A stretch of DNA of 64,000 nt, taken from NCBI GenBank assembly GCA_963667715.1, contig OY763926.1:2654177-2718176 (forward strand), given 5' to 3'. Position 1 is the stretch's first letter; each line of letters starts with the position of its first letter. Positions 5,381-29,839 of this stretch are shown in pieces. Position numbers and translations under genes: made by a program. The notes under the pieces were generated by a model. It had not been told where the DNA came from and searched no databases. It saw only the letters and a program-made list of their open reading frames with translations. The stretch comes from Sedimentisphaerales bacterium. Lineage in GTDB: Bacteria; Planctomycetota; Phycisphaerae; Sedimentisphaerales; SM23-30.

Positions 5381-6571
5381 ATGCAATTTGAATATTATAA
5401 TCCAACCCATATGATATTCGGTGCCGGTTCTCTGGCCCGCATAGGTGAAGTAGCAAGCAAATATGGTAAAACAGCTCTGGTAGTAACTGGCAGTGGAAGT
5501 GTCAAGCGAAACGGTACTTTTGACAAACTGACAAAAAGCCTCACAGATGCCGGAGTAGCTATATTTGAATGTGACGGCATAGAACCTAACCCAAGAATAT
5601 CATCTGTCAGACGCGGTGCGGCAACTGCCAGAGAGAATAAATGTGACATGATCATCGCTTTGGGCGGCGGTAGTACCATGGATGCCAGTAAGGCGATCGC
5701 TGCGGCGGTATTATACGATGGCGATCCATGGGATATGGTATTCCACGGTCAGGAAAATGTCCATATCCCCACCGAAGCTTTGCCAATAATAACAGTTCCA
5801 ACGCTGGCTGCGACAGGTTCTGAAATGAACTGCGGAGCTGTGATAACAAATGAAGAGACTACAGAAAAGTCATTCATGAGTACTGGCTGTCTGTACCCCA
5901 AAGTTGCGATAGTTGACCCACAACTAACAGTCAGCGTCCCTAAAAATCAAACAGCATACGGCGTTTGTGACATTATCACACATATAACAGAATCATACTT
6001 AAATAGCTCAGATACCACACCAATACAAGATAAATTCGCCGAAGGTGCTATACTCACAGCTATTGAATATGGTCAAAAGGCAATTGCTGACGGCAATGAT
6101 CTCGAAGCGAGAGCTCAGGTGCAATGGGCATCTATCGTAGCACTTAACGGCTGGATCGGCTCAGGTTCAGGTAGTGCTGGGTTCCCGGTACATATGATCG
6201 AGCATACCGTATCAGCCTACCATGATATCACACATGCTGCAGGTTTGGCAATAATCAACCCGGCGTGGATGAGATTTGCCGCAAAGAGCAATACTCCTAA
6301 GTTTGTACAGTTTGCAGAGCGTATTTTCGGGTTAAAAGCTAAAGGCCCGGACGATCTGGAATGTGCAATGGCTGGAATAGATAAATTTGAAGAATTCCTG
6401 AAGTCTATAAGTTGTCCAGTACGCTTCTCAGAACTGGGAATAGGCGATGAGCTAATTGAGACATACGCCAAAGAAACCCTGCGGATAATAAATGACGGCA
6501 AAGGAAACCTACCTGCCTTGCCTGCAATGTCAGTAGACGATATTATCGAGGTATTGAAAGCCGCACTATAA
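5381..6571 (+). CDS. Iron-containing (group III) alcohol dehydrogenase, butanol dehydrogenase/YqhD-like
   Basis: Fe-ADH signatures: 'IIALGGGSTMDASKAIA', 'TLAATGSEMN', and His-rich metal-site blocks 'CDIITHITESY' and 'HMIEHTVSAYHDITHAAGLA'. Confidence 0.9.
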   Translation: MQFEYYNPTHMIFGAGSLARIGEVASKYGKTALVVTGSGSVKRNGTFDKLTKSLTDAGVAIFECDGIEPNPRISSVRRGAATARENKCDMIIALGGGSTMDASKAIAAAVLYDGDPWDMVFHGQENVHIPTEALPIITVPTLAATGSEMNCGAVITNEETTEKSFMSTGCLYPKVAIVDPQLTVSVPKNQTAYGVCDIITHITESYLNSSDTTPIQDKFAEGAILTAIEYGQKAIADGNDLEARAQVQWASIVALNGWIGSGSGSAGFPVHMIEHTVSAYHDITHAAGLAIINPAWMRFAAKSNTPKFVQFAERIFGLKAKGPDDLECAMAGIDKFEEFLKSISCPVRFSELGIGDELIETYAKETLRIINDGKGNLPALPAMSVDDIIEVLKAAL

Positions 6572-6625
6572 AACATAAATTTAATACCGCCGTAGTAGAA
6601 ACTATGGTGCTTATTGACCGACTAA

Positions 6626-6660
6626 AGCCTTGTATGCTAAATGCATTCAAGGCTTTTTTT
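6626..6660 (+). terminator. Intrinsic terminator after the alcohol dehydrogenase gene (part of an alternative-pairing element)
   Basis: AAAGCCTTG (6624-6632) pairs with CAAGGCTTT (6648-6656), followed by a T7 run (6654-6660). Confidence 0.6.
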
Positions 6661-6804
6661 GTTAGCATACAAGGCAAAAGCAACTCCAATAAAATAAAGT
6701 CCATCTCATTTGCAACTATGTCTATTCTATTTATAGGTATTTTTACAATAATAAAGATTGGATATTTCAATACAAGCACCTGGACAATCATGGAGTTACT
6801 ACAA

Positions 6805-8433
6805 ATGACAGGAAAAGAAAGAGTACTAAAAGCAATTAGCTGCCAACAGGTTGACAGAATCCCCTGGGTGCCTTTTGTTGGAGTGCATGGAGCTTCACTG
6901 ATCGATATGACAGCAAATGATTATCTAAAATCATCTGAGGCAATCGTAAAAGGTGTAAACAAAGCTGTAGAACTATACGAACCAGACGGCATTCCTGTTG
7001 TATTTGATTTGCAGATCGAAGCAGAAATACTGGGCTGCGAGCTTAAATGGGCAAAAGATAACCCGCCGGCTGTCGTATCTCACCCATTATCAAATGGAAT
7101 AGAGCTTAATAGCCTTATCGTGCCCAAAGCAGACATGAGCAGACTGAAGGTTTCACTCGATGCAACAAAAAAGCTAAGAAAGCAACATCCGGATATTGCA
7201 TTGTATGGCCTGATAACCGGTCCATTTACACTTGCCCTGCATCTATTAGGTACAGATCTGTTTATGAAGATGTTTGACAACCCGGAATATATCTTCCAAC
7301 TTATGGAATTCTGTCGAGACGTAAATATAGCAGTAAGTAAATACTACATAGAAGCCGGTTGTGATATAGTAGCGATAGTAGACCCAATGACAAGCCAGAT
7401 AGGCCCTGAAGAATTCAGCAGTTTTATAACTCCATATGTTAAAGCGGTGTTTGAATCGATAAGAAAAGAGGGTGCTAAAAGCTCATTTTTCGTCTGCGGT
7501 CACGCGCAGCAGAACATATCAGCGATGTGCGACTGTAAGCCGGATAATGTTTCTATTGACGAAAATATACCGCTGGATTTTGTTCGAGATGAATGCCTTA
7601 AACGAAATATCAGTTACGGCGGTAACTTACAGCTGACAAGTGTCCTGCTGCTTGGCAATGAACTAGACAGCCAGAAAGATGCTATACGATGCATTGATAC
7701 CTGTAACGATCACGGTGGTTTCCTACTGGCACCCGGCTGTGATCTGCCGTTTGCCACACCACCAGAAAACCTAAAGGCAATATCTGAAATCATTATAGAT
7801 CAATACAAACTAGATGTCGCAAGAAATATCCCGCAAGACAGCTGCGAACTGCCAGTATTTGATATGAGCCAATATGGCCAAAGTGATAAAGTAATAGTGG
7901 ACATAATCACCCTGGACTCTGAAGCGTGTGCTCCTTGTCAATATATGGTTGACGCTGTTAGAAAAGTATTACCAGAATTTAACGGTATAGTTGAGATGCA
8001 GGAACATAAGATCAAATATAAAGAATCTATCCAGTTCATGACATCGCTAATGGTACGCAATATACCAACTATATGCATTGACGGGCAGATAACATTTGTT
8101 TCTCGGATCCCACCCCACGATGAGCTGGCAAAAGCTATCCAGAAACGAATAAATGAAAAATTCAGTATGATGGTAAAACAGCGAAAGGCAACACTATACA
8201 TCCTGGACAGCGACGATATTTACAGCAGTAATATCAAAGACAGGATAGGTCAGGCTGCGCAGGAACTAGGGGTAAACGTTGACATTGAAACAATAACTGA
8301 GCCCACAGAAATAGCCTCTTACGGAGCTGTTAAAAGCCAGACTCCGGCAGTGGTCATGGCACAATACAGCCTGAAATCTGCCCGGCATATACCAGAAGTA
8401 GCGGCAATAAAAGAATGGCTCAAGGGCGTATAA
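6805..8433 (+). CDS. URO-D superfamily (MtaA/CmuA-like) corrinoid methyltransferase fused to two C-terminal thioredoxin-fold (Thioredoxin_3-like) domains
   Basis: 'MTGKERVLKAISCQQVDRIPWVPF', 'GCDIVAIVDP', 'FFVCGH' and 'LLAPGCDLPF' are typical of the MtaA/URO-D family. Residues after about 7888 read like small glutaredoxin/thioredoxin-like proteins, the first with C-A-P-C (7927-7938). Start choice: ATG 6805 has GGAG 9 nt upstream, and ATG 6790 is an alternative. The ORF-track start 6604 runs through a terminator and is rejected. Confidence 0.8.
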   Translation: MTGKERVLKAISCQQVDRIPWVPFVGVHGASLIDMTANDYLKSSEAIVKGVNKAVELYEPDGIPVVFDLQIEAEILGCELKWAKDNPPAVVSHPLSNGIELNSLIVPKADMSRLKVSLDATKKLRKQHPDIALYGLITGPFTLALHLLGTDLFMKMFDNPEYIFQLMEFCRDVNIAVSKYYIEAGCDIVAIVDPMTSQIGPEEFSSFITPYVKAVFESIRKEGAKSSFFVCGHAQQNISAMCDCKPDNVSIDENIPLDFVRDECLKRNISYGGNLQLTSVLLLGNELDSQKDAIRCIDTCNDHGGFLLAPGCDLPFATPPENLKAISEIIIDQYKLDVARNIPQDSCELPVFDMSQYGQSDKVIVDIITLDSEACAPCQYMVDAVRKVLPEFNGIVEMQEHKIKYKESIQFMTSLMVRNIPTICIDGQITFVSRIPPHDELAKAIQKRINEKFSMMVKQRKATLYILDSDDIYSSNIKDRIGQAAQELGVNVDIETITEPTEIASYGAVKSQTPAVVMAQYSLKSARHIPEVAAIKEWLKGV

Positions 8434-9363
8434 ATGCAAAATAACTATGCACAAATTGAAGTTTGGCTGCTGACAGGGTTTCTGGGCTCGGGCAAGACTA
8501 CCATGCTAAACGCCTTGCTCAATAATGAGTATTTTGCTGATAAAGATACCGCACTGGTGATAAATGAATACGGTAGTATCGGGATAGACAGCAACCTTAT
8601 CCAGAAACAGGAGCTGCCAAAATACGAGATCAATAAGGGCAGTATTTTCTGTATCTGTACCAAAACTGAATTTTTCAAGGTATTTGAACAATTGCGGACA
8701 AATCGACCTGAAATTGTCATTATAGAAGCTACAGGGATTGCAGAAACCAGCGGTATAGAACAACTTCTTAGTGAACCCATGCTGGAAAACTTATTCAAAA
8801 CACGTTGCAATATTTGCATGGTAGATGCGAAGAACTTTGTCCAGACTGCTGCATTTCTAAAAACGGCCGTTTCACAAGTAGAACAGGCAGATGCTGTTAT
8901 TATAAATAAAATTGACCTCGCAACTGCTAATAGCCTGGCTCAGACTCAGGAAATAGTTACCAGGCTAAACCCAGCTGCTCAGATCTACAAAGCTGAATAT
9001 GGAAAGGTTAAAAGCGACTTTTTAACCAGTATATGTCGACAGAATAAGAAAAGCGTAATATCGCAGAATCCCCCAGGGAAAATGCCGTCATCATACATAA
9101 AAACTGATATACCACTCGATAAGAATGTGTTTTTTTACACTGTTGAAAAGCTTAAAAAGAGCATACTTAGACTAAAAGGGAATATTGCTTTTACAGATTG
9201 TAATGCATTTATTGAAATCGCCGGCCAAGAGATAATTGTAAAACCGGCATGTCAAAACATGGGTAATCACACATCATTTTGTGTAATTGGATGGGAAATC
9301 GAGAAACAGGAGCTTACAGCCGCATTTGAAAAATGCTTATATAAAGCTCATCAGAATCAGTAA
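8434..9363 (+). CDS. CobW/COG0523-family G3E P-loop GTPase (metallochaperone-like)
   Basis: Walker A 'GFLGSGKTT', 'IIEATGIAE', 'NKIDL' and a CobW_C-like C-terminus. The start abuts the previous stop (TAAATG). Confidence 0.85.
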   Translation: MQNNYAQIEVWLLTGFLGSGKTTMLNALLNNEYFADKDTALVINEYGSIGIDSNLIQKQELPKYEINKGSIFCICTKTEFFKVFEQLRTNRPEIVIIEATGIAETSGIEQLLSEPMLENLFKTRCNICMVDAKNFVQTAAFLKTAVSQVEQADAVIINKIDLATANSLAQTQEIVTRLNPAAQIYKAEYGKVKSDFLTSICRQNKKSVISQNPPGKMPSSYIKTDIPLDKNVFFYTVEKLKKSILRLKGNIAFTDCNAFIEIAGQEIIVKPACQNMGNHTSFCVIGWEIEKQELTAAFEKCLYKAHQNQ

Positions 9364-9407
9364 TCGCACATAGAAACAAAGAATATTGTAAAATAACAGG
9401 AGTAGTA

Positions 9408-10037
9408 ATGACAGATTTACAACTATTAGCAAATTCGGTAATAAATGGCAAGCAAGACGATGCCATACGAATTACAACTGAAGCAATAATGGATAATATA
9501 TCGCCACAGCAGATACTGGAAGATGGCCTGATAGCCGGCATGAGCGTAGTTGGAGTTCGGTTCAAGGCAAATGAGATATATGTACCACAGGTACTTATTG
9601 CCGCACGTGCAATGAAATCGGCCATGGAAATACTTGAGCCCAAACTAGCAGAAGCGGGAGTAAGTGCACTGGGTAGAGCTGTTGTCGGAACAGTACAAGG
9701 CGACCTGCACGACATCGGTAAAAACCTTGTGGTTATGATGCTAAAAGGTGCAGGCTTTGAAGTGTGCGACCTTGGTGTGGATAAATCGCCGGAAGAATTT
9801 ATTATAAAGGCCAAAGAGCTAAACGCCGAGATCATTGGCTTAAGTGCACTGCTGACAACTACAATGCCAGCTATGGCACAGACTGTTGAAACAATCCGTC
9901 AGTCAGGGTTATCATGCAAAATAATGGTGGGCGGAGCACCTGTAACCCAGGAATTTGCCGACCAGATAGGAGCTGACGGCTATTCCGCTGATGCCGCCTC
10001 AGCGGTAGAAACGGCCAAAAAACTAATGAGTCATTAA
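9408..10037 (+). CDS. Corrinoid (B12-binding) protein of a methyltransferase system
   Basis: A B12-binding_2 helical cap is followed by a Rossmann domain with the lower-ligand motif D-x-H-x-x-G ('GDLHDIGKN', 9702-9719), then 'LSALLTTTM' and 'KIMVGGAPV'. An AGGAG Shine-Dalgarno sequence lies upstream. Confidence 0.9.
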   Translation: MTDLQLLANSVINGKQDDAIRITTEAIMDNISPQQILEDGLIAGMSVVGVRFKANEIYVPQVLIAARAMKSAMEILEPKLAEAGVSALGRAVVGTVQGDLHDIGKNLVVMMLKGAGFEVCDLGVDKSPEEFIIKAKELNAEIIGLSALLTTTMPAMAQTVETIRQSGLSCKIMVGGAPVTQEFADQIGADGYSADAASAVETAKKLMSH

Positions 10038-10100: not shown

Positions 10101-13100
10101 TTAATAGCTTAGGTTGTACAAATTCTGAATTTCATTTTCAGGAAGTGCACGGTCAAATATATACAGTTCATCAATATTCCCATTAAAGTATTGCCTACCA
10201 GCTGAGAACATTCCGATGGTGACATTATCGCCTTCTGCTGTGCTTATATCACAAGGAGCACAAGCACCTGCTATCTCAAGCGAACCATCAATATACATAA
10301 GCACATCTTCAACATTAGGTGAACCATCATCGGCAAAAACAACTGCAACATGATGCCATTGGCCGTCGGCAAGATTTCTGGTACCGCTAATATAACCGCC
10401 TGAAACCTCAACCCTGAGATTGCTGTCACCATTTAAACGTACAAGCCATTTAGCACCGATATCAGTTGATCCCCAACTGAGAATATGCTTGCCGGGAGTC
10501 TCAGTTTTTATCCACATACTGCAAGTCCTGTCCTGCGTCCCTGTTATCCCCTTATAGGACATACAGAATACATAATCGTTTATGCCATCAAGTAAAAGAC
10601 TGCTATTTATTACACCATCTCCACCTGGATCACTATTGGCACCATTATATGCATAACATAGCCTCTGGTATATAGACCCGTCTTCAAAGGTATTGCCATC
10701 TTTTTCATCACAAGACAGATATAATAACACATCTTTCTTAACAATTTTCTTTATTTCATCAATAGAGAGGGCACGTTCATATATCTTTATATCATCGATC
10801 ATACCCGGCAGAAACTTACCTGGTACATCATTTACATATATAGCACCAGCGAGAACATTTCTGCTGGCATTGGTGTTTATCACCTGCTCACCGGCAAAAG
10901 TAACACCCTGCACCACGCCGTCAACTAAAAGAATAATGTCTTTGACGGTAGCGTTATCACTTCCATTTAGTATAGCAGCAACATGGTGCCACTGATCATC
11001 GTCTATCTTATTAATAGTACTGATATAACCGCCAAAGATACCAACTCCAAGCCTGCCGTCGGATTCAACCCTAAACAGCCACGCTTCACCAGCACTAGCC
11101 TGTCCCCAGGTAAGAATACCAAGCTGCTCATTAACATTTGTCTTCACCCAGGCCATGCACGTACGGCTGGCAGAACCGCCCACACCATAACAGCCGTCAA
11201 GTTCTATATAGTCACCTTCCCCGTCAAGTGAAACAGCTCCACCGCCCAGAACAGCTGGGATATAATAGTCATCGATATAAGCATCGCCATGTAATACCGC
11301 AGCGTTTCCGTTTACTACATCCTGAGTATCAGTATTCAATGGCCAATAGCCTATTATATTTGCATTATCGGCCAATGCCAACCATTGGCTGGCCATGACC
11401 TCAATATCTGCAATATCAATATTACAATCTCCAGTAATATCTGTACCTGAACAAGCATTATTCATCCATTCGGCAGCCAACATAGAGAAGTCTGCAATAT
11501 CGATATTTCCATCGCCACTAATATCAGCGGAAGTGTTACAACTACACTGGCATGAATCGTAATAGAATGATTCTAATGAAGAATTATGAGCTTCTATAGC
11601 TGGAATATAGTAGCAGTGCGAAACATTAGATAGGGGATTGTTAGTAATATCAACATTAACTAAACCAGTTTGTGTTGTTATTGGCTGAATATTACTAATA
11701 TTATTATTTTGCAGATAAACATTTTCCAGACGATCACAAGACGCTAATAGAGAAATATCAATGATCTCATTATTATTCAATACAACGCCAGCCAAACGAG
11801 GCATATTTGAAACAAATGAAATATCACTAACCCCGCAATTGCCTATATATAAAAATTGCATATTCCCCATATAATATAGTAGCCCCGGGTCAAGATTTGT
11901 TATATTACAAGCATTCAGTAATATAAGACTATCACAAGTATCCAAAACACTAGTATCTGTTATTGGGTTAGAATCAATCATCAATGTATTCAGGACAGGA
12001 TAATTAGCGATAACTGAAATATCTGCTATTTCATTATCTGAAATACCGAGTACCTCAAGTCTGGTCAGGCCACTTAATATTGATATATCAGTGATATGAT
12101 TATATTCTGCATGAAGATATCTTAAATCGGTAAAACTTTGCAAAGGTGATAGATCAGATAATTCGTTACCATCTACCCAAAGAGTTTGCAGAGATGTAAG
12201 ACCGCCAATAGGCTCAAGACTAGCGACATTATTGCCAGAAAGGTTAAGATATTCAAGATTTTTAGCATACTGAAGACCAGCCAACTCTGATATATTCCGG
12301 CCAACAGCATCAAGAGTCGCAAGGGCCATGATATCGATCACATTTGGCGAAATCACACCAAGCTGCTCTTCTACTGCAGCTTTGAGATTTGGGTCAGTAA
12401 AAACTACAGTATCAAAAGCAGATGGTTTAGACTCAAATTCAATTATGTAACCAACAACATCCCCAGCATATACCAGGTCAACAATATTTTCAGCATCATT
12501 CCAATAAGCAGCACGATAACCAACGCACATAAACTGTAGATAATCTTCAACATTAAGTAAGTTATTAGGCTCAACACCATGCCATCTGGAGTAGGTCCAG
12601 GGGCTGCCGTCAACCCAGGTCCAGCTTCCACCCGGTTCATTATTTTTATTGATCTGATAGCCGCCAAGCCATGGGCCGGCAAAATGAACATCAACATCAA
12701 TGAGCCATTCAGTCCAATACATATCGTAATCACTGATCATGTAAACAAAATCATTCTCCTGCTCGCTGGTAATAGAAACGAGGTGGCCACCTGCTTCAAT
12801 TGCGGCACTGTTAGCACACTGCCACGAAATACCATTCGGAGCAGCAACTGCAAGGTAATAATGCCCATTACCACCTGCACCTTCAGACCATTGAACAACT
12901 GTACCAGGTACATATTCATCATTATCAACAGCTGTAACATTTATCTCAACTGTATCACATTGTTCAGACTCAAGTAGCAACATCGCAGAGCTGTCAAGAA
13001 AATCGTCATCATCTTCCTCTGCAGAAATAATAACTGTTTTACCAGAACTGTAATTTGTATTGTCAAAAACCAGAGTATCACCAAAAATTATTGCCAGATC

Positions 13101-13340
13101 CTGCCCTAGAGATTCAATTCTGGCAGATACTGTAAGGTTCCCCTCTGGAGCTTGGGAAAGACTAACATAAATAATTTTAAAGTCACCTTCTGGAACATTT
13201 ATTAAAGCTTCTGAGACAATTATACTTACATCGGAAAGCTCACCCGTTTCGTAAGCCGATGCACCAGACACCAAAATAACAAAAGATAATAGAAATAATA
13301 TACGAACAGAATTTGTTACATTACCAAGCAGTTTAAACAT
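10101..13340 (-). CDS. Large secreted multidomain protein: C-type lectin domain + leucine-rich repeats + dockerin-like Ca-binding repeats + 2 x LamG (Laminin_G_3)
   Basis: It has a signal peptide. The CTLD covers aa ~148-302 ('GGHLVSITSEQENDFV ... WLGG ... WTWVDGSPWTYSRW..EPNN ... WND'). About 10 LRRs cover aa ~340-575 ('L..L..L.L..N.I.DIS'). The dockerin-like repeats are 'DISGDGNIDIADFSMLAAEW' and 'DITGDCNIDIADIEVMASQW'. Two LamG modules each carry 'W(H)HVA.. ..DG' and 'IDD(E)..IY.RAL' blocks. Confidence 0.8.
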   Translation of the reverse strand: MFKLLGNVTNSVRILFLLSFVILVSGASAYETGELSDVSIIVSEALINVPEGDFKIIYVSLSQAPEGNLTVSARIESLGQDLAIIFGDTLVFDNTNYSSGKTVIISAEEDDDDFLDSSAMLLLESEQCDTVEINVTAVDNDEYVPGTVVQWSEGAGGNGHYYLAVAAPNGISWQCANSAAIEAGGHLVSITSEQENDFVYMISDYDMYWTEWLIDVDVHFAGPWLGGYQINKNNEPGGSWTWVDGSPWTYSRWHGVEPNNLLNVEDYLQFMCVGYRAAYWNDAENIVDLVYAGDVVGYIIEFESKPSAFDTVVFTDPNLKAAVEEQLGVISPNVIDIMALATLDAVGRNISELAGLQYAKNLEYLNLSGNNVASLEPIGGLTSLQTLWVDGNELSDLSPLQSFTDLRYLHAEYNHITDISILSGLTRLEVLGISDNEIADISVIANYPVLNTLMIDSNPITDTSVLDTCDSLILLNACNITNLDPGLLYYMGNMQFLYIGNCGVSDISFVSNMPRLAGVVLNNNEIIDISLLASCDRLENVYLQNNNISNIQPITTQTGLVNVDITNNPLSNVSHCYYIPAIEAHNSSLESFYYDSCQCSCNTSADISGDGNIDIADFSMLAAEWMNNACSGTDITGDCNIDIADIEVMASQWLALADNANIIGYWPLNTDTQDVVNGNAAVLHGDAYIDDYYIPAVLGGGAVSLDGEGDYIELDGCYGVGGSASRTCMAWVKTNVNEQLGILTWGQASAGEAWLFRVESDGRLGVGIFGGYISTINKIDDDQWHHVAAILNGSDNATVKDIILLVDGVVQGVTFAGEQVINTNASRNVLAGAIYVNDVPGKFLPGMIDDIKIYERALSIDEIKKIVKKDVLLYLSCDEKDGNTFEDGSIYQRLCYAYNGANSDPGGDGVINSSLLLDGINDYVFCMSYKGITGTQDRTCSMWIKTETPGKHILSWGSTDIGAKWLVRLNGDSNLRVEVSGGYISGTRNLADGQWHHVAVVFADDGSPNVEDVLMYIDGSLEIAGACAPCDISTAEGDNVTIGMFSAGRQYFNGNIDELYIFDRALPENEIQNLYNLSY

Positions 13341-13882: not shown

Positions 13883-14404
13883 ATGTCATTAAATGAAGAA
13901 CAAATAGTTGAGCTGGTGCTAACACACAGGCTTAAGCTGATCTCGTTTATGAGGTCAATAGTATGCGATTTTCACGTTGCTGAAGACCTGTACCAGAAGG
14001 TGTGCCTGTCTGCCCTGCAGAACAAAGAAAAATTCACAGACAGCGGCCATCTGATGAAATGGGTGTGGGTTGTTGGCAGGAATGAATCGTTAAAGCATTT
14101 GCGAGCCCAAAAAAAACAACCAATTGTTCTAAATGAAGAAATCCTTGAGATGATCCAATGCGAATCGGAAAATAATTCGATATTGGATTATCCCGAAATA
14201 CAGTCAATATTGGAAAAATGTATATCCCAGCTCTCCGAGCCGGTAAAGAACTTATTGGAAAAAAGGTATAAACAGAATCTGACTGGTGCTAAACTTGCAG
14301 AGTCGTTAAACAGAAATACCAAATCAATATATGTTGCGATCAGCCGGGCACATCGAGCGTTATATAACTGTATGCGAAAGAAAATAGAACCAATGAAAGA
14401 ATAA
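13883..14404 (+). CDS. ECF-type RNA polymerase sigma-70 family factor
   Basis: 173 aa. It has a region 2 block 'AEDLYQKVCLSAL' and a region 4 HTH 'TGAKLAESLNRNTKSIYVAISRAHRAL'. The anti-sigma gene follows immediately. Confidence 0.9.
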   Translation: MSLNEEQIVELVLTHRLKLISFMRSIVCDFHVAEDLYQKVCLSALQNKEKFTDSGHLMKWVWVVGRNESLKHLRAQKKQPIVLNEEILEMIQCESENNSILDYPEIQSILEKCISQLSEPVKNLLEKRYKQNLTGAKLAESLNRNTKSIYVAISRAHRALYNCMRKKIEPMKE

Positions 14405-14405
14405 A

Positions 14406-16133
14406 ATGAGCAATAAAGATAATACAATTTATTCATTCTCAGACTTTTCCGACAGTCGCTTTGATGTGTTGATGCAAGTATACCTTGAAGGAAAGATCAC
14501 AGAAAAAGACGCCGACACGCTCAGAGATTACCTCAAAAGGCCGGAATACGTTAAAAGATTTGTAATGGTCTGTAAACAGGAACAGCTGGTTCATGATATC
14601 ATATCATCCGGAGCAGCTAATAATGCCGAAAGTTCAGCCGAAACTGAGCTTGAAGTTTTACGCCAGTTTGCTATGTATGAAAATAATGCCCCAAGCGTAG
14701 AAAAAGAGCTGCCTAAGCCAGATCCGGTGGTTATTAATACCGTGAAGCTGCCGGAAAGACCGCACAGGGACAAGTTTTCACTCTTAACGATACTGGCTAC
14801 TGCAGCCATAGTACTGCTGGCCCTGATAATCAGACTTACTCCCACTCAGCAAGAACCAAAAGCTGCTATATTATCTGATACCTGTAAAGTATGCTGGACC
14901 GGCCACCTGACAGATCTACAGATTGGTAATAATATATTTACCAATGAAAAAGTAAGTCTGTCACAGGGGCTTATCGAGCTAAAGACCGACCGGGACGTAA
15001 CGGTAATAATAGAAGGCCCAGCTGAATTTGAGTTTAAGACCACATCAGAGTTACAGCTTAATTACGGCCACATATATTCCAAAGTTATGAAGCAAGGTGC
15101 CGGCTTTACAGTTAAAACACCTAATGCAATGATCGTTGACCTTGGAACTGAATTCAGTATAAAGGTAGATAGGTTCCTCGGATCAACACAGGTGCAAATG
15201 TATAAAGGATCAGCGGTAATATCAAATAATCAGGATGAATCTGGACGTGAGATATTAAAAACCGGTATTGCTCGTGCTGTTGACAATCAAGGCGTGATGT
15301 CAGATATTCCATTTGAAAAGAACTGCGTTCTTAACCGAACACTATCTGGATATGAAAAGAAACTGGAAGAGCTGCATGTCAGCAGATATATGACATTTAA
15401 CAATAAAACTTCATGGGTAAATAATTATGTAGGCCGGAATAGTATAAAGGACAATTTCCAATATTACGATACATATACTTCACCATTTAGTGATCAGGAC
15501 GCTCTATTATCCGATTCTGCATTATATTTTAATTCAGACAGTTCCGTCAAAAGCTATGCTCAGCTGCACAATATGCCTGAATTTGATAAAGGAAGCTTTA
15601 CTATTGCCCTGTGGTTTAAGCAAAACCCAGATCAACCCGGCCCCAGAAAACAATATCTGGTATCAAATTATGAGCCGGCTACTGTAAGCGGCTGGAGAAT
15701 TGGTATGCTGGACAATAAACTTTTCATTAGAATGTCTGAATATTCCGCACAACCTATATATCAGCTGTGGATGACAAATGATCAGCCATTAAGCGAAGGC
15801 TGGCATTCAGTAGTAATGGTTGCTGATCGTAGTAATTCGACAGTTACCGGTTATCTTGACGGCAATATAACCAATTGGGCTTTTGCTAATCCAGAAGAGC
15901 TCAAAGCTATTGATAGCGAGTATAACGGTAATACACTGAGTAAGAAACTCCCTAAACATATATCAATATCCACCGATACCGATATCCATCTCGGAATTCG
16001 TCCTAAAAACCTTATGTGCCAATTTAGCGGCTGGATATATGATATGGCAGTATGGAACAGTCCGCTGAACGCTGATAAGATTAAGCAGCTATACAGCAAG
16101 TTCCCATTAGAACAAGATCAAAACAACCAATAA
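14406..16133 (+). CDS. FecR-family transmembrane anti-sigma factor with C-terminal LamG domain
   Basis: It starts 1 nt after the sigma stop. There is a single TM ('FSLLTILATAAIVLLALIIRL'), a FecR-like beta domain ('GLIELKTDRDVTVIIEGPAEFEF ... GAGFTVKTPNAMIVDLGTEFSI') and a C-terminal Laminin_G_3 pattern ('GSFTIALWFK ... GWHSVVMVADRSNSTVTGYLDGN ... FSGWIYDMAVWNSPL'). Confidence 0.85.
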   Translation: MSNKDNTIYSFSDFSDSRFDVLMQVYLEGKITEKDADTLRDYLKRPEYVKRFVMVCKQEQLVHDIISSGAANNAESSAETELEVLRQFAMYENNAPSVEKELPKPDPVVINTVKLPERPHRDKFSLLTILATAAIVLLALIIRLTPTQQEPKAAILSDTCKVCWTGHLTDLQIGNNIFTNEKVSLSQGLIELKTDRDVTVIIEGPAEFEFKTTSELQLNYGHIYSKVMKQGAGFTVKTPNAMIVDLGTEFSIKVDRFLGSTQVQMYKGSAVISNNQDESGREILKTGIARAVDNQGVMSDIPFEKNCVLNRTLSGYEKKLEELHVSRYMTFNNKTSWVNNYVGRNSIKDNFQYYDTYTSPFSDQDALLSDSALYFNSDSSVKSYAQLHNMPEFDKGSFTIALWFKQNPDQPGPRKQYLVSNYEPATVSGWRIGMLDNKLFIRMSEYSAQPIYQLWMTNDQPLSEGWHSVVMVADRSNSTVTGYLDGNITNWAFANPEELKAIDSEYNGNTLSKKLPKHISISTDTDIHLGIRPKNLMCQFSGWIYDMAVWNSPLNADKIKQLYSKFPLEQDQNNQ

Positions 16134-16183
16134 TTGTGTTCGCTCATTTTAAAATGGATCATTAAATTTTTTCCATCTCGATT

Positions 16184-16222
16184 TCCCGGGCCTGTAAGAG
16201 ACGGCAGACCCGGGAATTTTTT
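16184..16222. terminator. Bidirectional intrinsic terminator between convergent genes
   Basis: TCCCGGGCCTG (16184-16194) pairs with CAGACCCGGGA (16205-16215) with one mismatch, followed by ATTTTTT. Confidence 0.65.
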
Positions 16223-16244
16223 ATACTCAGCTTTAGTATCTTTA

Positions 16245-17324
16245 TTAAGGTAATGCAATATTAACTATACTATCTGTCGGCCTGTCAGCCCCGACCCGGC
16301 CATTAGTTAATCTCATAGGATCAATACACAGAAGCCCTCTATGGCTATTATCTTTTTCCCAGCGATAACTAAACCATGGCTTATTGTCTGGCCCATCGAA
16401 TATTGCCATATGGCCACCAAGAAATACCTGCCCCCTGCTGTCCTTTTTCCATGGACCAAGCACGCTATCAGCATAAGCAAAACCAGCCCAATATCCTTGT
16501 CTCTCAAGAGGATTAGCCTCTCTATATGGGCCAGAATACATCAAGACATATCTTCCATCTTCACAAATAAGCCATGGCCCTTCCTGATAATCAGCTTTAG
16601 CCGCTAATCCAATATCTGTATTATCATTTGCCACAGCCAAGACCCTCTGACCAGTTAGAGAAACCTTGTTTTCATTTAATTTTGTCAGGTCAATACGCTG
16701 GATAAATATATCACCAGCTGGAATTACAGCATAAGTCTGTCCATCAGTATCTTCAAATAGCGAGGTGTCACAAGCACCACCCTCTATATAAGTTATATGC
16801 TCATAAGGACCGGTTATCTTATCAGCAACACCAACAAATGCATAGCCAGCAGTCCCCCAGGTTCCAGCCGGGTTAAACTCTTTTTTTATCCAATTATCAG
16901 CAGTAAAGATCAGATAATATTTGCCTGCCATCTTATGTATCTCAGGAGCCCAGAATCTGTTTTTATAAGGTGAACTTTCAGGGAGTAAACTAGCCTTTAC
17001 CAGCCAGTTTTCAAACTTCCACTCTTTTAAATCAGGCGATGAAAACAGTATAATGCCGGGCGAACCGCCCTGGTCTGGCATGTGCAAGCGGTCTGTTTCA
17101 CGATTGGCAAAAGGCCAGACAGTAAAGACCAGATAATACCGACCGCCATCTTTAATAATACACGGGTCTCTTATCTCCTTATGCTCAACAGAATAAACGC
17201 TATAACTAAAATCTATCGGATTACAGTATTCAAAGCTTTTAACAGACTGTTGAGGCAGAGTTTGGGAAAAAGATAAACCAGACAATATACATACCCAACA
17301 AAGACAAGCCAACATACGTCGCAT
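16245..17324 (-). CDS. Glycoside hydrolase family 43 (xylosidase/arabinanase-type five-bladed propeller)
   Basis: It has a signal peptide. GH43 blocks are 'IRDPCIIKDGGRYYLVFT', 'FWAPEIHKMAGKYYLIFT' and 'QEGPWLICEDGRYVLMYS'. Confidence 0.85.
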   Translation of the reverse strand: MRRMLACLCWVCILSGLSFSQTLPQQSVKSFEYCNPIDFSYSVYSVEHKEIRDPCIIKDGGRYYLVFTVWPFANRETDRLHMPDQGGSPGIILFSSPDLKEWKFENWLVKASLLPESSPYKNRFWAPEIHKMAGKYYLIFTADNWIKKEFNPAGTWGTAGYAFVGVADKITGPYEHITYIEGGACDTSLFEDTDGQTYAVIPAGDIFIQRIDLTKLNENKVSLTGQRVLAVANDNTDIGLAAKADYQEGPWLICEDGRYVLMYSGPYREANPLERQGYWAGFAYADSVLGPWKKDSRGQVFLGGHMAIFDGPDNKPWFSYRWEKDNSHRGLLCIDPMRLTNGRVGADRPTDSIVNIALP

Positions 17325-17432
17325 AATCAGTCCCCTTTAAAACAATACTATTTCAATGATTAAAAAAAAAGCCGCTAACCAAGATATGGTCAACAGCTTT
17401 TTTATACATTATATATGCTAAATAATCAAATA

Positions 17433-18734
17433 TTATTCTGCTACGATCTTGATAGTATGAACTACCGGCTTGATAGAATCTTCAAGAGCTTTTACCTTCT
17501 TAGCATGTACCATTTCGGTAAGTTTGACAATAGTATCCATGTCGATCTTTGCTTCTTCGCCATGGAACATGGTCTTGATCTGATGTGTTTCGTAATTCTG
17601 CTTATTTGTAACCGCTTCATCAACTTTCTTGAATGCGTCAGAGAAAGGATTAACATCAAAATCAGCTGCCAGATTAACACCTTCTGCGAGCTGCTGCTTT
17701 GTGTATGTGTGACGCTGAGAGCCCCAATAAACAACATACTTATCAGCTTTGGCATTTTTAACAACCAGCATCATACGGTTAAGTTCCTCATTGAAAGGAA
17801 CCAGAGTCATACCAGAGCGAATAGATTTCCATGAATTAGTCGGGCCGGTAGCACAGAACGGGTAACGTGTACTTTCGATAGTAACCAGACCGTTATTAGA
17901 AGAAAGAACCTTGTGGCCTTCACTAACAGTAGCAGAGCCATCAGCGAGATCCATGGTAAAGGTACCAATATTACCATCCAGGCCAAGACCTTTCAGGAAT
18001 GCATAGGCCATAACCAGGTGACCAGCCCAATCAGGATGAACACCATCTTCGCCGGCAAGTTTATAATCATCAGCATACATTTTGCGTGCATTAAACTCGC
18101 CAACAAGCATAGGAACAAATACATCAGCATAAGCGACATTTTCTTCCTTGGCTATTTTGATACCAATATTACGCAATTCACATAAGTTCTGGTTCATAGC
18201 TTCAACTGTTGAATCTGGATTGCCCTGCCACCAAGGCTTAAGTAGAATAGTTCCAGGAGAACCCTGAACAACACGAGTGCCAGACTTTTTAAAAAGCTTA
18301 ACTATAGCACTTGAAGCCTTGTAATATTCATCGCCTGTTTCTTTTTTATATGGTTCATAGTGATGGTCGTTCATGCCGTAACAGGTAGTAGCAATATCAG
18401 GTTTGAAACGGAGACAGTCATTTTCCATACGAGAGTAGAAACCAGGAGCTGTTTCACCACCCCAGCCAAACTGACGGCAAGTAATATCAAGCTGCGGAAC
18501 ACAAACGGTAAGATAGGTTTCCATTATTCTGGAATACATCTTCTGCTCAGTGATCGAATCGCCAATAATAGCCAGACGGTCACCTTTTTTAAACTGCAAT
18601 TCCTGAGTAACAGGAGCCTTCACCGGCTTAAAAGCCGCAAAATGCGGATCATTTGGTAATTTCTCCAGCATCTGTGCTGGCAAAGAAGCGGCAAGTAATA
18701 GCAGCGACAAAATAAATAATAATCTTTTACTCAT
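17433..18734 (-). CDS. Secreted SGNH/GDSL-family hydrolase (esterase) with an extra C-terminal domain
   Basis: It has a signal peptide. Block I is 'RLAIIGDSITEQ' (GDS), 'GWGGE' and 'CYGMND' are blocks II/III, and 'DGVHP' is block V. Confidence 0.8.
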   Translation of the reverse strand: MSKRLLFILSLLLLAASLPAQMLEKLPNDPHFAAFKPVKAPVTQELQFKKGDRLAIIGDSITEQKMYSRIMETYLTVCVPQLDITCRQFGWGGETAPGFYSRMENDCLRFKPDIATTCYGMNDHHYEPYKKETGDEYYKASSAIVKLFKKSGTRVVQGSPGTILLKPWWQGNPDSTVEAMNQNLCELRNIGIKIAKEENVAYADVFVPMLVGEFNARKMYADDYKLAGEDGVHPDWAGHLVMAYAFLKGLGLDGNIGTFTMDLADGSATVSEGHKVLSSNNGLVTIESTRYPFCATGPTNSWKSIRSGMTLVPFNEELNRMMLVVKNAKADKYVVYWGSQRHTYTKQQLAEGVNLAADFDVNPFSDAFKKVDEAVTNKQNYETHQIKTMFHGEEAKIDMDTIVKLTEMVHAKKVKALEDSIKPVVHTIKIVAE

Positions 18735-27986: not shown

Positions 27987-29069
27987 ATGAAAAAGATTAT
28001 TTTACTTATACTAATATCAACAACAATCATCAGAGCCCAAATGCTAGAGGGCTATGCCAAATATACATATGATGAAAGTCATTTTGCTATTGAGATTGTA
28101 AACTATATCGAAGGTAACGGCGTTGGCAGAGACTATCTCAACGGGACAAAATTCAATATCCCTGAAAATGCTCTGGCCAGGCCAACCGTCGATACCACAC
28201 CAGATAACTGGTATATTAACCCGGCAGATGGCAATGTGCCAGTAAACCCAGTCTATCCGGCCTTCAGAGCCAGCGAATTAGTTTCAATCGGACAGGGAGG
28301 CGAGCTGATCGTTAAGTTTGACCATAAAATAGCAGACGATATCAACAACCCTTACGGTGTAGATTTCATTATTTTTGGCAACTCTATGTGTGTTGTCGGA
28401 AACGGTCAGGGCTGGACAAATCGCAATCCGGAATACTGCCGAATAAGCGGCGGCGGCTTTTGTGAAGGTGGTATAGTATCTGTCAGTCAAGACGGTGAGA
28501 ACTGGCTTGAACTAACAGCTGGAGATAATATTGCTGATGGCTTTGCCCCAACATTAGGGAGATTATATGAGCCGGAACTGCTGGAAAATGAACCGAATGA
28601 TGGACATAATGAGCTTGGAACATGGAATAAATGGTGGACATCAGAAACCAACCCTACCCTGCCGCTTGACCCGGAAGAAGATTTCACTGACTGGAACGGC
28701 TGGTCTGTAGCTCAACTGACTAATCATTATGGCTACTCCGCCGGCGGCAGCGGTTTTGACCTTAAATGCTTCAGAAACAGCCCAGAATGGATTCAATATA
28801 TAAAGGTAAGCAACCCTGCCAGTAGTGGTAATACCCCGGAAATAGATGCTTTTTCCGATGTAAGTTGCTGCGGTGACTGGCAAAACCCGTACCCAGAAGG
28901 TGACTATAATATGGACTGCCTGGTAAGTATGGATGACTTTGCTTATCTGGCTAACCGATGGCTGGCATGTCAGGAGAATACTGATCCTCAGTTAATAAAC
29001 TGCTATGATATGAATGACCTGTCTGATCTTGCAGAGAACTGGTTGGTTCGAAGCTGGGGAAATAATTAA
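27987..29069 (+). CDS. Secreted protein, paralog of 26440-27258, with a dockerin-like C-terminal repeat instead of PEP-CTERM
   Basis: The signal peptide 'MKKIILLILISTTIIRAQ' begins at ATG 27987. The ORF-track ATG 27948 lies inside a hairpin loop. The core is 'GGELIVKFDHKIADDINNPYGVDFIIFGNSM ... GGIVSVSQDGENWLEL'. The C-terminus is 'GDYNMDCLVSMDDFAYLANRW ... YDMNDLSDLAENW'. Confidence 0.7.
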   Translation: MKKIILLILISTTIIRAQMLEGYAKYTYDESHFAIEIVNYIEGNGVGRDYLNGTKFNIPENALARPTVDTTPDNWYINPADGNVPVNPVYPAFRASELVSIGQGGELIVKFDHKIADDINNPYGVDFIIFGNSMCVVGNGQGWTNRNPEYCRISGGGFCEGGIVSVSQDGENWLELTAGDNIADGFAPTLGRLYEPELLENEPNDGHNELGTWNKWWTSETNPTLPLDPEEDFTDWNGWSVAQLTNHYGYSAGGSGFDLKCFRNSPEWIQYIKVSNPASSGNTPEIDAFSDVSCCGDWQNPYPEGDYNMDCLVSMDDFAYLANRWLACQENTDPQLINCYDMNDLSDLAENWLVRSWGNN

Positions 29070-29839
29070 TGTGCTTCTGCAAAAATAGAGGCTTTACACT
29101 GCTGGAGCTGCTCGTTGTAGCTACTATTATATCGTTACTGGTAATGATAATCGCTCCTGCATTGAGTAATGCAAGGAATAGTGCAAGATCTGTAGTATGT
29201 ATGAGTAGGCTCAGGCAGTTGTCAATCGCTTCAATAAATTATACAGCTGCCAATAATGAGTATTATCCAATTGCATACTATAACCAAAGTACCTCAACAG
29301 AAATGGTATCGTATTGCTGGGATTTTATAAGTAAGAAAGACTGGAATGTTTCTCCTCCGGAAACTGAAATAACTCCCGGTTTATTATGGGCTTATACCGA
29401 CAGTGGCGAAGTACAGCAGTGTCCCGGATATCGGGGCAATAGCAACTGGCTGTCAGACCCTTATACTGGCTATAATTATAATACAAGCTACATTGGAGGT
29501 GGCAGCGGCGAAAGTACCATGCAGCCGGCAAAAGATGGACAGGTAAAACACCCTTGTGCAACACTGATCTTTGGGGATGGAGAATATGCCGGTGGTGCCA
29601 ATAAATTTATGAGAGCTCCGCAAAACCGCCCTGATGATAGATACCAAAAGGATAATAATTTTTCATTTAACAGCAGAGTTGCCGGCACGCAAGGGTTCAG
29701 ACATAACAAAAAAACAAATATCGCTTTTTGCGACAGCCATGTAAAGTCAACCGGTGATATCTACAGCGGCGGCCATGATGATCTGGCAGAAGGAACTGGC
29801 TTTATCTGTGATGATAACAGCATGTACGATCTTCGATAA
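29069..29839 (+). CDS. Prepilin-type N-terminal cleavage/methylation domain protein with a DUF1559-like body (type II pseudopilin-like)
   Basis: 'RGFTLLELLVVATIISLL' is the class III signal. 'HNKKTNIAFCDSHV' matches the H-X9-DG-type tail common in PVC bacteria. The start overlaps the previous stop (TAATG at 29067-29071). Confidence 0.9.
   Translation: MCFCKNRGFTLLELLVVATIISLLVMIIAPALSNARNSARSVVCMSRLRQLSIASINYTAANNEYYPIAYYNQSTSTEMVSYCWDFISKKDWNVSPPETEITPGLLWAYTDSGEVQQCPGYRGNSNWLSDPYTGYNYNTSYIGGGSGESTMQPAKDGQVKHPCATLIFGDGEYAGGANKFMRAPQNRPDDRYQKDNNFSFNSRVAGTQGFRHNKKTNIAFCDSHVKSTGDIYSGGHDDLAEGTGFICDDNSMYDLR

Follow-up and report, generated by a model that had tools for sequence, protein, structure and literature searches.

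The usual account of C-type lectins is of animal proteins that owe their stability to two disulfides. One gene in the window (the whole 64-kb stretch of DNA that was analysed) encodes a 1079-aa protein in which such a domain had been noted, with both of its Ca2+/sugar-binding motifs. This locus raised the questions of whether the segment is a genuine homologue of animal carbohydrate-recognition domains (CRDs), whether its calcium and sugar site is complete, how unusual it is among prokaryotes, and what it is likely to do.

Architecture of the 1079-aa protein

[quoted passage not shown] The features are:

10101..13340, minus strand: complete gene of the 1079-aa mosaic protein, from the ORF list
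13254..13340, minus strand: predicted Sec signal peptide, residues 1-29 (MFKLLGNVTNSVRILFLLSFVILVSGASA, then YE), read from the sequence
12924..13253, minus strand: N-terminal domain, residues 30-139, of beta-rich look and with an acidic EEDDDD run in its sequence
12417..12923, minus strand: CTLD, residues 140-308, from PF00059, the Mincle match, AF2 and Foldseek
11601..12404, minus strand: internalin-like LRR region, approximately residues 313-580, from Pfam LRR_4, LRR_8 and LRR_EndoS
11391..11534, minus strand: dockerin, residues 603-650, with two Ca2+-loop repeats (DISGDGNIDIADF, DITGDCNIDIADI), from PF00404
10737..11360, minus strand: LamG/concanavalin-A-like domain 1, approximately residues 661-868, boundaries read from the sequence
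10104..10727, minus strand: LamG/concanavalin-A-like domain 2, approximately residues 872-1079, from Laminin_G_3

By eye, the signal peptide combines a basic n-region and a hydrophobic core with an A-S-A motif, and the Kyte-Doolittle peak of the protein, at residues 8-30 at the N-terminus, is its sole strongly hydrophobic stretch. Residues 30-139 scanned alone against Pfam gave nothing, even at E≤10, and had no homologues among the fetched proteins save the identical protein P0260. A Calx-beta label suggested by visual resemblance was therefore dropped for this domain. The LRRs and the two LamG modules that had been described beside the CTLD were both recovered in the full-length Pfam scan, with LRR_4 at 3e-28, LRR_8 at 5e-10 and LRR_EndoS also matching, and with Laminin_G_3 reaching a total of 4e-41 over two stretches. 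The stronger of these covers residues 919-1072, within LamG domain 2, and Laminin_G_2 spans residues 776-852. NCBIfam internalin models matched the LRR region at 1e-29, but these matches were partial and far under the model cutoffs. The reported dockerin-like repeats also stood: PF00404 was weak in the scan of the full-length protein (E=0.91) but scored 24.9 bits over two stretches against a cutoff of 22.9 when residues 585-664 were scanned alone, identifying a type I dockerin.

Pfam and NCBIfam scans found no PEP-CTERM in the protein, in which the CTLD runs on into the LRR, dockerin and LamG modules. A search of genome contigs with the whole 1079-aa protein returned no relative, and the full-length homologue search was dominated by LRR proteins, with no orthologue of this architecture in the databases searched. 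Combinations of CTLD with LRR, with LamG or with dockerin each occurred in one to a few other fetched proteins, never all together. Since the full architecture has no database twin, conservation of context cannot back any role proposed for it.

Homology and predicted fold of the CTLD

The CTLD had been placed at 12435-12899, corresponding to residues 148-302, and this span falls inside the domain as delimited here. PF00059 (Lectin_C), the proposed check on the assignment, matched the domain alone at 24.6 bits (E=4.4e-5), above the cutoff of 22.6, but scored 20.2 bits (E=0.001), under the same cutoff, when the full-length protein was scanned. The same model matched ten of ten close homologues. 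In a phmmer search of PDB sequences, the best solved relative was the CRD of Mincle (E=3.9e-10), and all 60 matches listed, of 105 at E≤10, were C-type lectin-like domains. Judged by these matches, the resemblance is far beyond chance.

Structure prediction led to the same family. AF2 runs on the CTLD gave pLDDT values of 89.0 and 92.7, with all five models of the second run at least 91 and a pTM of 0.89, and the predicted secondary structure follows the order beta1-alpha1-alpha2-(hairpin)-beta2-beta3-beta4-beta5. Foldseek comparison of two models with the PDB gave 303-352 matches at E≤0.001, and the top 50 were exclusively animal C-type-lectin-fold domains, the majority of them sugar-binding CRDs, with target-normalised TM-scores of approximately 0.6-0.84. 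Many of the matched CRD structures carry bound mannose, fucose, GlcNAc or trehalose. The model and these matches together identify the CTLD double-loop fold. The WIGL-type core motif is present on beta2 as W224-L-G-G227, one of several sequence blocks that had been named in the preliminary description and were located here, with GGHLVSITSEQENDFV at residues 184-199, WTWVDGSPWTYSRW at 240-253 and EDYLQF at 265-270. Residues 140-308 are thus a homologue of the animal C-type lectin CRD, as had been proposed.

One segment departs from the animal template:

12675..12743, minus strand: family-specific insertion, residues 200-222, between alpha2 and the WLGG strand, from alignments and the model

It corresponds to an alignment gap opposite Mincle and codakine, and was modelled as an extra beta-hairpin (model strands 71-75 and 78-90). 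W209, within it, and the adjoining G-P-W-L-G-G are almost invariant in the family of prokaryotic relatives described below.

The calcium and sugar site

Three blocks were aligned with the primary site of canonical CRDs:

12564..12572, minus strand: EPN triad, E257, P258 and N259, codons GAGCCTAAT, aligned with the Mincle EPN
12543..12548, minus strand: E265-D266, at the start of strand beta3, from the Mincle alignment
12495..12503, minus strand: WND, W280, N281 and D282, on strand beta4, codons TGGAATGAT, from alignment and model

The EPN and WND codons lie exactly where they had been reported, and the suggestion that they form a Ca2+ site agrees with their alignment to the site-2 ligands of bovine Mincle, which are E168, N170, E176, N192 and D193 (PMC7618208). 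The column pairs are E257/E168, P258/P169, N259/N170, E265/E176, W280/W191, N281/N192 and D282/D193. EPNNLLNVED pairs with EPNNLVTVED of Mincle, with WND 13 residues further on in both, and the ligand spacing is the same in the two proteins (eight residues from E to E, 15 from E to W). By alignment all five Ca2+ site-2 ligands are present, so that the E/Q-P-N/D triad, the beta3 Glu and the WND on beta4 that mark a canonical CRD are all found. E257 and N259 are predicted ligands of both Ca2+ and the sugar 3- and 4-hydroxyls, E265 is a putative third Ca2+ ligand equivalent to Mincle E176, and N281 and D282 are predicted Ca2+ ligands, with W280 likely to pack into the core.

The model placed these residues as in canonical CRDs, with WND on beta4 (model residues 141-144 form the strand and correspond to residues 280-283 of the protein) and E265/D266 at the entry to beta3. 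Secondary structure and pLDDT were read from the model, the latter being 94 for the block with EPN, 91 for that with E265 and 90 for the WND block. As aligned, every residue of the Ca2+/sugar site is in place, in a real C-type lectin domain.

Loss of the canonical cysteines

Canonical animal-type CRDs require two conserved intrachain disulfides (PMC7618208), formed by C1-C4 and C2-C3. The preliminary description allowed for two of the four cysteines, but none is retained. Alignments with Mincle and codakine put A180 in the C1 column and Y267 in the C2 column, and no Cys occurs beyond residue 272, leaving the C3/C4 region with none. The two cysteines that the domain does contain, C175 and C272, are at non-canonical positions and are not conserved in homologues. 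A block that had been read as W..A...C...GG is in fact W.CA...A...GG: in the segment W173-Q-C175-A-N-S-A-A180-I-E-A-G-G, the Cys follows the Trp by two positions (W+2), and Ala occupies W+7, the canonical place of C1. The C1 column is Ala in all 80 family members compared. With all four canonical cysteines missing, that the long loop stays stable in the absence of a C2-C3 disulfide is an assumption drawn from the model.

A large prokaryotic family of cysteine-free CTLDs

A functional CTLD with an intact sugar-binding site had been considered uncommon in bacteria, and the rarity of such domains did not hold. A family profile matched 31,935 cluster representatives, of unlabelled origin, and a survey of species-representative genomes yielded 496 confirmed family loci. 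The best 80 of these 496 loci come chiefly from Planctomycetota and Verrucomicrobiota, with Methanothrix among them. The nearest relatives of the domain are prokaryotic, with 41-46% identity and single-sequence E-values down to 1e-27, whereas animal CRDs are 20-26% identical to it. The family HMM, in which the domain itself is included, scored it at 221.8 bits (E=8.5e-68) and matched a single ORF in the window, that of the 1079-aa protein. The family signatures are an N-terminal strand VQW..GGNGH.Y, Ala in the C1 column, an insertion with a Trp, the (nearly) invariant GPWLGGYQ, and a C-terminal strand GY[VI][VI]E; all are found here (W151, N158, H160, Y162, A180, W209, G222-Q229 and G297-E301). 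On these signatures, the CTLD is a member of a large, widespread, Cys-free prokaryotic family, and for this reason the domain is no rarity.

A typical member is a surface protein of 180-260 aa that combines a signal peptide with a CTLD and a C-terminal PEP-CTERM, or else carries tandem CTLD repeats. A PEP-CTERM or MYXO-CTERM directly follows the CTLD in five of ten close homologues, and is common in the family, not universal; other relatives carry dockerins. The present protein has no such C-terminal anchor.

The Ca2+/sugar site varies across the family. The commonest state is the intact EPN/E/WND site, found in 33 of the best 80 of the 496 loci, and about half of the members have lost at least one ligand. 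Among 80 single-domain homologues, WND was retained in 73 and the beta3 Glu in 68, which suggests selection on the site. The first triad was most often EPN (19), followed by QPD (16), QPN (12) and EPS (7). As read from the alignments, these changes in the triad are the ones by which specificity is set in animal lectins.

Neighbouring genes encode an ECF sigma factor (13883-14404), an anti-sigma factor of FecR/LamG type, a GH43 and a GDSL esterase. We rejected family-wide linkage or co-regulation with the adjoining sigma/anti-sigma pair: an ECF sigma gene and an anti-sigma gene were each found within 3 kb of only two of 80 related loci, so their adjacency in the window is not a family trait and is circumstantial.

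Proposed function and alternatives

The most likely function, towards which we lean with some reserve, is that of a lectin module, Ca2+-dependent and directed at mannose/GlcNAc/fucose/glucose-type sugars, on an extracellular protein that binds glycans. In this reading residues 140-308 make up a prokaryotic C-type lectin CRD that lacks the disulfides, on a protein predicted to be exported by its N-terminal signal peptide. Once exported, the domain would bind Ca2+ in its long-loop region through E257, N259, E265, N281 and D282, and the Ca2+ together with the E and N side chains of EPN would ligate two vicinal equatorial sugar hydroxyls, with the mannose/GlcNAc/fucose/glucose-type preference associated with EPN. 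The CTLD would be one of several binding modules, with the LRRs and two LamG domains, on a non-catalytic extracellular protein that the dockerin probably tethers either to a partner carrying a cohesin or to the cell surface. Such a protein may help to capture glycans or to adhere, in a planctomycete that lives anaerobically on polysaccharides and probably belongs to the order Sedimentisphaerales. The window's RpoD is at least 90% identical to RpoD of Sedimentisphaerales MAGs, from which the host was inferred. The analysis shows the homology, the fold, the presence and spacing of the ligands, the architecture and the family distribution, and Ca2+ binding, sugar specificity, secretion, tethering and physiological role are inferred. 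The signal-peptide-like N-terminus, the anchors and dockerins of relatives, the protein's own dockerin and the gene neighbourhood also speak for this explanation.

It is possible, though we think it unlikely, that the domain binds Ca2+ but that its ligand, not a soluble or polymeric sugar, is a protein partner, a glycolipid, or the surface of a mineral or of ice; the CTLD would then be a Ca2+-dependent module of general use in adhesion or scaffolding. Many non-glycan ligands of CTLDs are known (PMC7618208), the sequence and fold matches include type II antifreeze proteins and snake-venom CTLDs, and the LRRs in the same protein are typical protein-binding modules. Against this, a full E-P-N / E / W-N-D set spaced as in Mincle is what marks sugar-binding CRDs, the EPN/QPD toggling in the family mirrors the switching of sugar specificity, and the best-matching structures are sugar complexes.

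Less credible again is a structural or spacer module without a ligand, in which the motifs linger through recent descent from a functional relative. The unmatched mosaic architecture, for which the databases searched hold no orthologue, the score below the Pfam cutoff in the full-length scan and the ligand losses in about half of the family would all fit such a spacer. However, the five ligands, P258 and WLGG are intact even though the closest relatives are only 41-44% identical, a divergence that would have given ample time for decay had the site been unconstrained.

CTLDs are best known from Metazoa and the nearest solved structures are all animal, which would favour recent transfer from an animal to a bacterium, or eukaryotic contamination of the assembly. 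We regard this as very improbable and rejected recent transfer on GC content, context and family signatures. The window is an ordinary segment of bacterial chromosome, with DnaG-RpoD, SmpB and a cobalamin riboswitch; the GC content of the CTLD (0.436) and of the whole gene (0.398) is near that of the window (0.411); and the domain has the prokaryotic C1-position Ala, GNGH.Y and GPWLGGYQ and is 41-46% identical to its nearest prokaryotic relatives, against about 22-26% for animal CRDs. Finally, although targets of DGRs were earlier the best-known prokaryotic proteins with a 'C-type lectin fold' (e.g. PMC5006420), a DGR-diversified variable protein like Bordetella phage Mtd or Treponema TvpA can be dismissed because the window holds no template-repeat copy of the CTLD DNA (best off-target match 17-19 nt; reverse transcriptases were sought by Pfam scans of 21 of the window's larger ORFs), and in addition no Mtd/TvpA or FGE-type fold was among the best 50 fold matches of each search and the CTLD lies near the N-terminus, not at the C-terminal end.

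For the family as a whole, we judge the chances to be about even that prokaryotic Cys-free CTLDs are true Ca2+-dependent lectins, with EPN/QPD-type triads setting specificity as in animals, used by PVC-group bacteria and some archaea as PEP-CTERM- or dockerin-tethered modules for glycan capture or adhesion. The gene exemplifies a large, widely spread prokaryotic branch that keeps the full Ca2+/sugar site, in which all four cysteines are replaced, and that switches between EPN and QPD as animal lectins do. Were such lectin activity true, it would provide the first biochemically defined prokaryotic C-type lectin, as far as the literature searched shows, and lectin engineering would gain a simple CRD scaffold that needs no disulfides and can be expressed in the cytoplasm. 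The question of whether the CRD of Metazoa, with its Ca2+/sugar site, is older than animals or reflects exchange with bacteria would also be informed. Ca2+-dependent sugar binding would further mean that planctomycetes and verrucomicrobia harvest glycans, at the surface and through dockerins, with a carbohydrate-binding module of a new class. The consequence for the present locus, a one-off mosaic exoprotein, is modest.

Comparison with known systems

The broad C-type lectin-like superfold is shared with other extracellular prokaryotic proteins, namely the receptor-binding domains of intimin and invasin, Mtd, TvpA and the halomucin CTLDs of Haloquadratum. To our knowledge, the intimin/invasin domains and the DGR variable proteins Mtd and TvpA are without an EPN/WND Ca2+ site, and none of them was among the fold and sequence matches listed for this domain. 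The halomucin CTLDs are known as annotations (PMC3119063), as is a highly transcribed 'C-type lectin domain protein' of Methyloprofundus (PMC8788690). In the literature searched we found no characterised prokaryotic canonical C-type lectin, and no binding experiment on a prokaryotic member.

The domain's own family consists of the prokaryotic Lectin_C proteins of Planctomycetota, Verrucomicrobiota, Armatimonadota, Methylococcaceae, Methanothrix and others, which NCBI/JGI annotate as 'lectin-like protein' or 'Lectin C-type domain'. It has in common with them the Cys-free core, the N-terminal motif and the insertion. It differs from typical members in being a single CTLD fused to LRR, dockerin and two LamG modules, without PEP-CTERM.

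Among animal proteins, the fold is the same as that of Mincle/CLEC4E (PDB 4KZV, 4ZRV), CD23, DC-SIGN, langerin, Endo180 CRD2 and mannose receptor CRD4, and the Foldseek probability against such group II EPN-site CRDs was 1.00, with target-normalised TM-scores of approximately 0.65-0.84. The WIGL-type core motif (WLGG here) and the five site-2 ligands are common to both. Unlike these CRDs, the bacterial domain has no canonical Cys, an extra hairpin of approximately 20 residues between alpha2 and beta2, and the family-specific N-terminal strand motif VQW..GGNGH.Y, and it is embedded in a bacterial mosaic exoprotein with no stalk or transmembrane context. The closest single-domain counterpart in the PDB is codakine (2VUV), the mannose-specific lectin of the clam Codakia orbicularis, which was the best such match to the family profile (E=2.6e-12) and the top fold match of the better AF2 model. 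The animal lectin keeps the canonical cysteines, with C in the A180 column and NEDC where the bacterial domain has VEDY, but the two share GPWLGG, which pair directly in the alignment, and EPNN..G.ED...WND.

Homology of the domain to animal C-type lectins

[quoted passage not shown] The Pfam Lectin_C model scored marginally below its cutoff of 22.6 bits against the full-length protein (20.2 bits, E=0.001), and passed it when the CTLD was scanned alone (24.6 bits, E=4.4e-5). A phmmer search of all PDB sequences identified the bovine Mincle CRD (E=3.9e-10), and all 60 matches listed were C-type lectin-like domains. A ten-homologue profile detected codakine (2.6e-12), together with PLA2R, DEC-205, CD23, the mannose receptor and others. 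AlphaFold2 modelled the domain with a pLDDT of 89.0 from a 10-sequence alignment and 92.7 from 80 sequences (pTM 0.89; at least 91 in all five models). The top 50 Foldseek matches in the PDB were exclusively animal C-type-lectin-fold domains, for the most part sugar-binding CRDs (codakine, Endo180 CRD2, Mincle, CD23, DC-SIGN, langerin, mannose receptor CRD4 and others), with a probability of 1.00 and target-normalised TM-scores mostly of 0.65-0.84. No intimin-, Mtd- or FGE-type fold was present among these top-50 matches listed. Together, these analyses concur with the homology to C-type lectins claimed in the preliminary description.

The predicted Ca2+/sugar site is conserved and the canonical cysteines are not

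The span 12435-12899 corresponded exactly to residues 148-302, and the EPN and WND motifs were found where they had been reported, as were the blocks WLGG, GGHLVSITSEQENDFV, WTWVDGSPWTYSRW and EDYLQF:

10101-13340, minus strand: query ORF, 1079 codons (ORF list)
12564-12572, minus strand: EPN, residues 257-259 (sequence)
12495-12503, minus strand: WND, residues 280-282 (sequence)

In bovine Mincle, E168 and N170 (EPN), E176, and N192 and D193 (WND) hold Ca2+ site II and the sugar (PMC7618208). HMMER alignment paired EPNNLLNVED...WND of the query with EPNNLVTVED...WND of Mincle, and the query ligands are therefore predicted to be E257, N259, E265, N281 and D282. Spacing was the same in both proteins, with 8 residues from the EPN Glu to the beta3 Glu and 15 from there to the Trp. 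In the AlphaFold2 model WND lay on a strand (residues 280-283), E265/D266 directly before the preceding strand, and EPN in the loop ahead of that strand; this predicted order is the canonical topology, and the blocks holding these elements had pLDDT values of 90-94 in the 80-sequence model. An intact binding site, as previously claimed, is supported at the level of sequence (alignment and spacing) and of fold (model). We infer that the CTLD would bind Ca2+ at site 2 (site II), and an EPN-type site may accept sugars whose 3- and 4-OH groups are equatorial (Man, GlcNAc, Fuc, Glc).

The earlier observation was essentially right apart from the cysteines. Two of the four canonical cysteines (C1-C4) had been thought to be kept, but none is. 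Alignments to Mincle and codakine placed A180 at C1 and Y267 at C2, while C3 and C4 must come after WND and the CTLD has no Cys past residue 272. The proposed block 'W..A...C...GG' is absent: the helix reads W173-Q-C175-A-N-S-A-A180-I-E-A-G-G, with Cys at W+2 and Ala at the canonical C1 position (W+7), a column that was Ala in 80/80 single-domain homologues. Since no canonical Cys is retained, and C175 and C272 occupy non-canonical columns that vary among homologues, the query CTLD is predicted to be free of disulfides.

The domain belongs to a large prokaryotic family

Such domains had been considered uncommon in bacteria, which was not borne out. At E<=1e-3, a profile of the CTLD and nine homologues matched 31,935 cluster representatives, of which 2,543 also passed E<=1e-30, in a library of 1.84 billion entries unlabelled by origin, so that eukaryotes will be among the matches. 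When one genome per prokaryotic species was scanned with just two peptide patterns, 496 loci were confirmed. The best 80 among them were all in MAGs or genomes, mainly of Planctomycetota (Phycisphaerae, Pirellulales) and Verrucomicrobiota, with others in Armatimonadota, Anaerolineales, Acidobacteria, Gammaproteobacteria, Nitrospirota, Gemmatimonadota and the archaeon Methanothrix. Relatives were already named 'Lectin C-type domain' or 'lectin-like protein' in their source annotations, where a precomputed PF00059 match accompanied most of them.

A close Cys-free CTLD homologue with 45-46% identity, named 'lectin-like protein' by NCBI, was present in the MAG assigned to this archaeon (Methanothrix sp., locus L003, JALNZQ010000072.1; also protein P0227). 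If the binning is right, the Cys-free family spans the boundary between bacteria and archaea.

EPN, Glu and WND (proline included) were all present in 33 of the best 80 genome loci, with a further 11 domains carrying Q-D-E-N-D. The five ligand positions read E-N-E-N-D in 121 and Q-D-E-N-D in 46 of the 488 domains of the top 150 representatives, and E-N-E-N-D in 15 of the 80 single-domain homologues. Because of these counts in three sets, the intact EPN/WND site is, judged by sequence, the commonest state of the prokaryotic family. Among the 80 single-domain homologues WND (73/80) and the beta3 Glu (68/80) were largely kept, and the first triad varied (EPN 19, QPD 16, QPN 12, EPS 7). Conservation of the ligands on beta3 and beta4 alongside a switching first triad would be the pattern expected of working lectins with differing specificities. 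We regard Ca2+-dependent binding of a ligand other than a sugar as unlikely though appreciable, and a structural module without ligand as less probable again.

Genomic neighbourhood

The window is ordinary bacterial chromosome, with DnaG-RpoD, SmpB, an M16 peptidase, a hybrid sensor kinase and a cobalamin riboswitch. RpoD (35058-36821, plus strand) grouped at 90% identity or more with its counterparts in two Sedimentisphaerales MAGs and on a second large contig (4,243,401 bp), which makes an anaerobic planctomycete of the Phycisphaerae the probable host. GC content (CTLD 0.436, gene 0.398, window 0.411) did not point to recent acquisition of foreign DNA. Contamination by animal DNA or a recent transfer from an animal is very improbable given the genomic context, GC and prokaryotic family signatures, and a DGR variable protein, for which there is no template repeat in the window and the fold subclass is wrong, is more improbable still.

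A 542-bp intergenic gap separates the query gene from a divergent pair:

13883-14404: ECF sigma factor
14406-16133: anti-sigma factor of FecR type, ending in a LamG_3 sensor-like domain

Beyond this pair, the minus strand encodes a GH43 glycosidase and then a GDSL esterase (region 13883-18734), an arrangement that fits a glycan-responsive neighbourhood. This linkage is not a feature of the CTLD family, because an ECF sigma or anti-sigma gene was nearby in only 2/80 related loci.

Other features of the window were as follows:

5381-10037, plus strand: gene run resembling a corrinoid-dependent methyltransferase system (Fe-alcohol dehydrogenase, 609-aa URO-D/MtaA-like methyltransferase-thioredoxin_3 fusion, CobW-like GTPase, B12-binding corrinoid protein)
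25852-25968, plus strand: cobalamin riboswitch RF00174 (74.3 bits), upstream of ORFs 26440-29839
49262-49750, plus strand: smpB; ARAGORN found no tmRNA or tRNA gene in the whole 64-kb window
49783-51930, plus strand: 715-aa protein with Pfam beta-propeller/WD40-type matches far below threshold, which may be a divergent propeller protein
12579-12977, plus strand: 132-aa ORF antisense to the CTLD gene
9314-9835, minus strand: 173-aa ORF antisense to the CobW/corrinoid-protein genes

Translation of either antisense ORF gives low-complexity sequence, and neither is likely to be a gene.

Architecture compared with typical relatives

The query gene encodes the only CTLD detected in the window by the family HMM. 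Its product (minus strand) comprises:

Residues 1-29: signal-peptide-like N-terminus (sequence read and hydropathy)
Residues 30-139 (12924-13253): N-terminal domain
Residues 140-308: CTLD (Lectin_C, phmmer, AlphaFold2, Foldseek)
Residues ~313-580: internalin-like LRRs (LRR_4, 3e-28)
Residues 603-650: dockerin (24.9 bits against a cutoff of 22.9, scanned alone)
Residues ~661-868 and ~872-1079: two LamG domains (Laminin_G_3, 4e-41)

The N-terminal domain, which includes an acidic EEDDDD run, matched no Pfam model when scanned alone with a threshold as loose as E<=10, and none of the fetched proteins other than the identical copy P0260 was homologous to it. No catalytic domain was detected in the query. 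The protein may be exported, and its CTLD, LamG and LRR modules would suit a multivalent, non-catalytic glycan-binding or adhesion protein that the dockerin might tether to a cohesin-bearing partner or the cell surface. No database protein except an identical copy (P0260, on a 4.59-Mb contig) matched the whole architecture, and CTLD+LRR, CTLD+LamG and CTLD+dockerin each occurred in only one to a few other fetched proteins.

The query thus belongs to a prokaryotic Lectin_C family that is already annotated though biochemically uncharacterised, and its mosaic architecture is unusual. The query locus on its own carries modest weight, and the family as a whole would carry more if Ca2+-dependent sugar binding were demonstrated. 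The family consensus is a signal peptide followed by the CTLD and then VPEP-hydrophobic-RRRR; PF07589 was found in ~30/120 listed profile matches, and dockerin in a few. Typical relatives are PEP-CTERM (or MYXO-CTERM) surface proteins of 180-260 aa, or tandem CTLD arrays, whereas the query is a mosaic.
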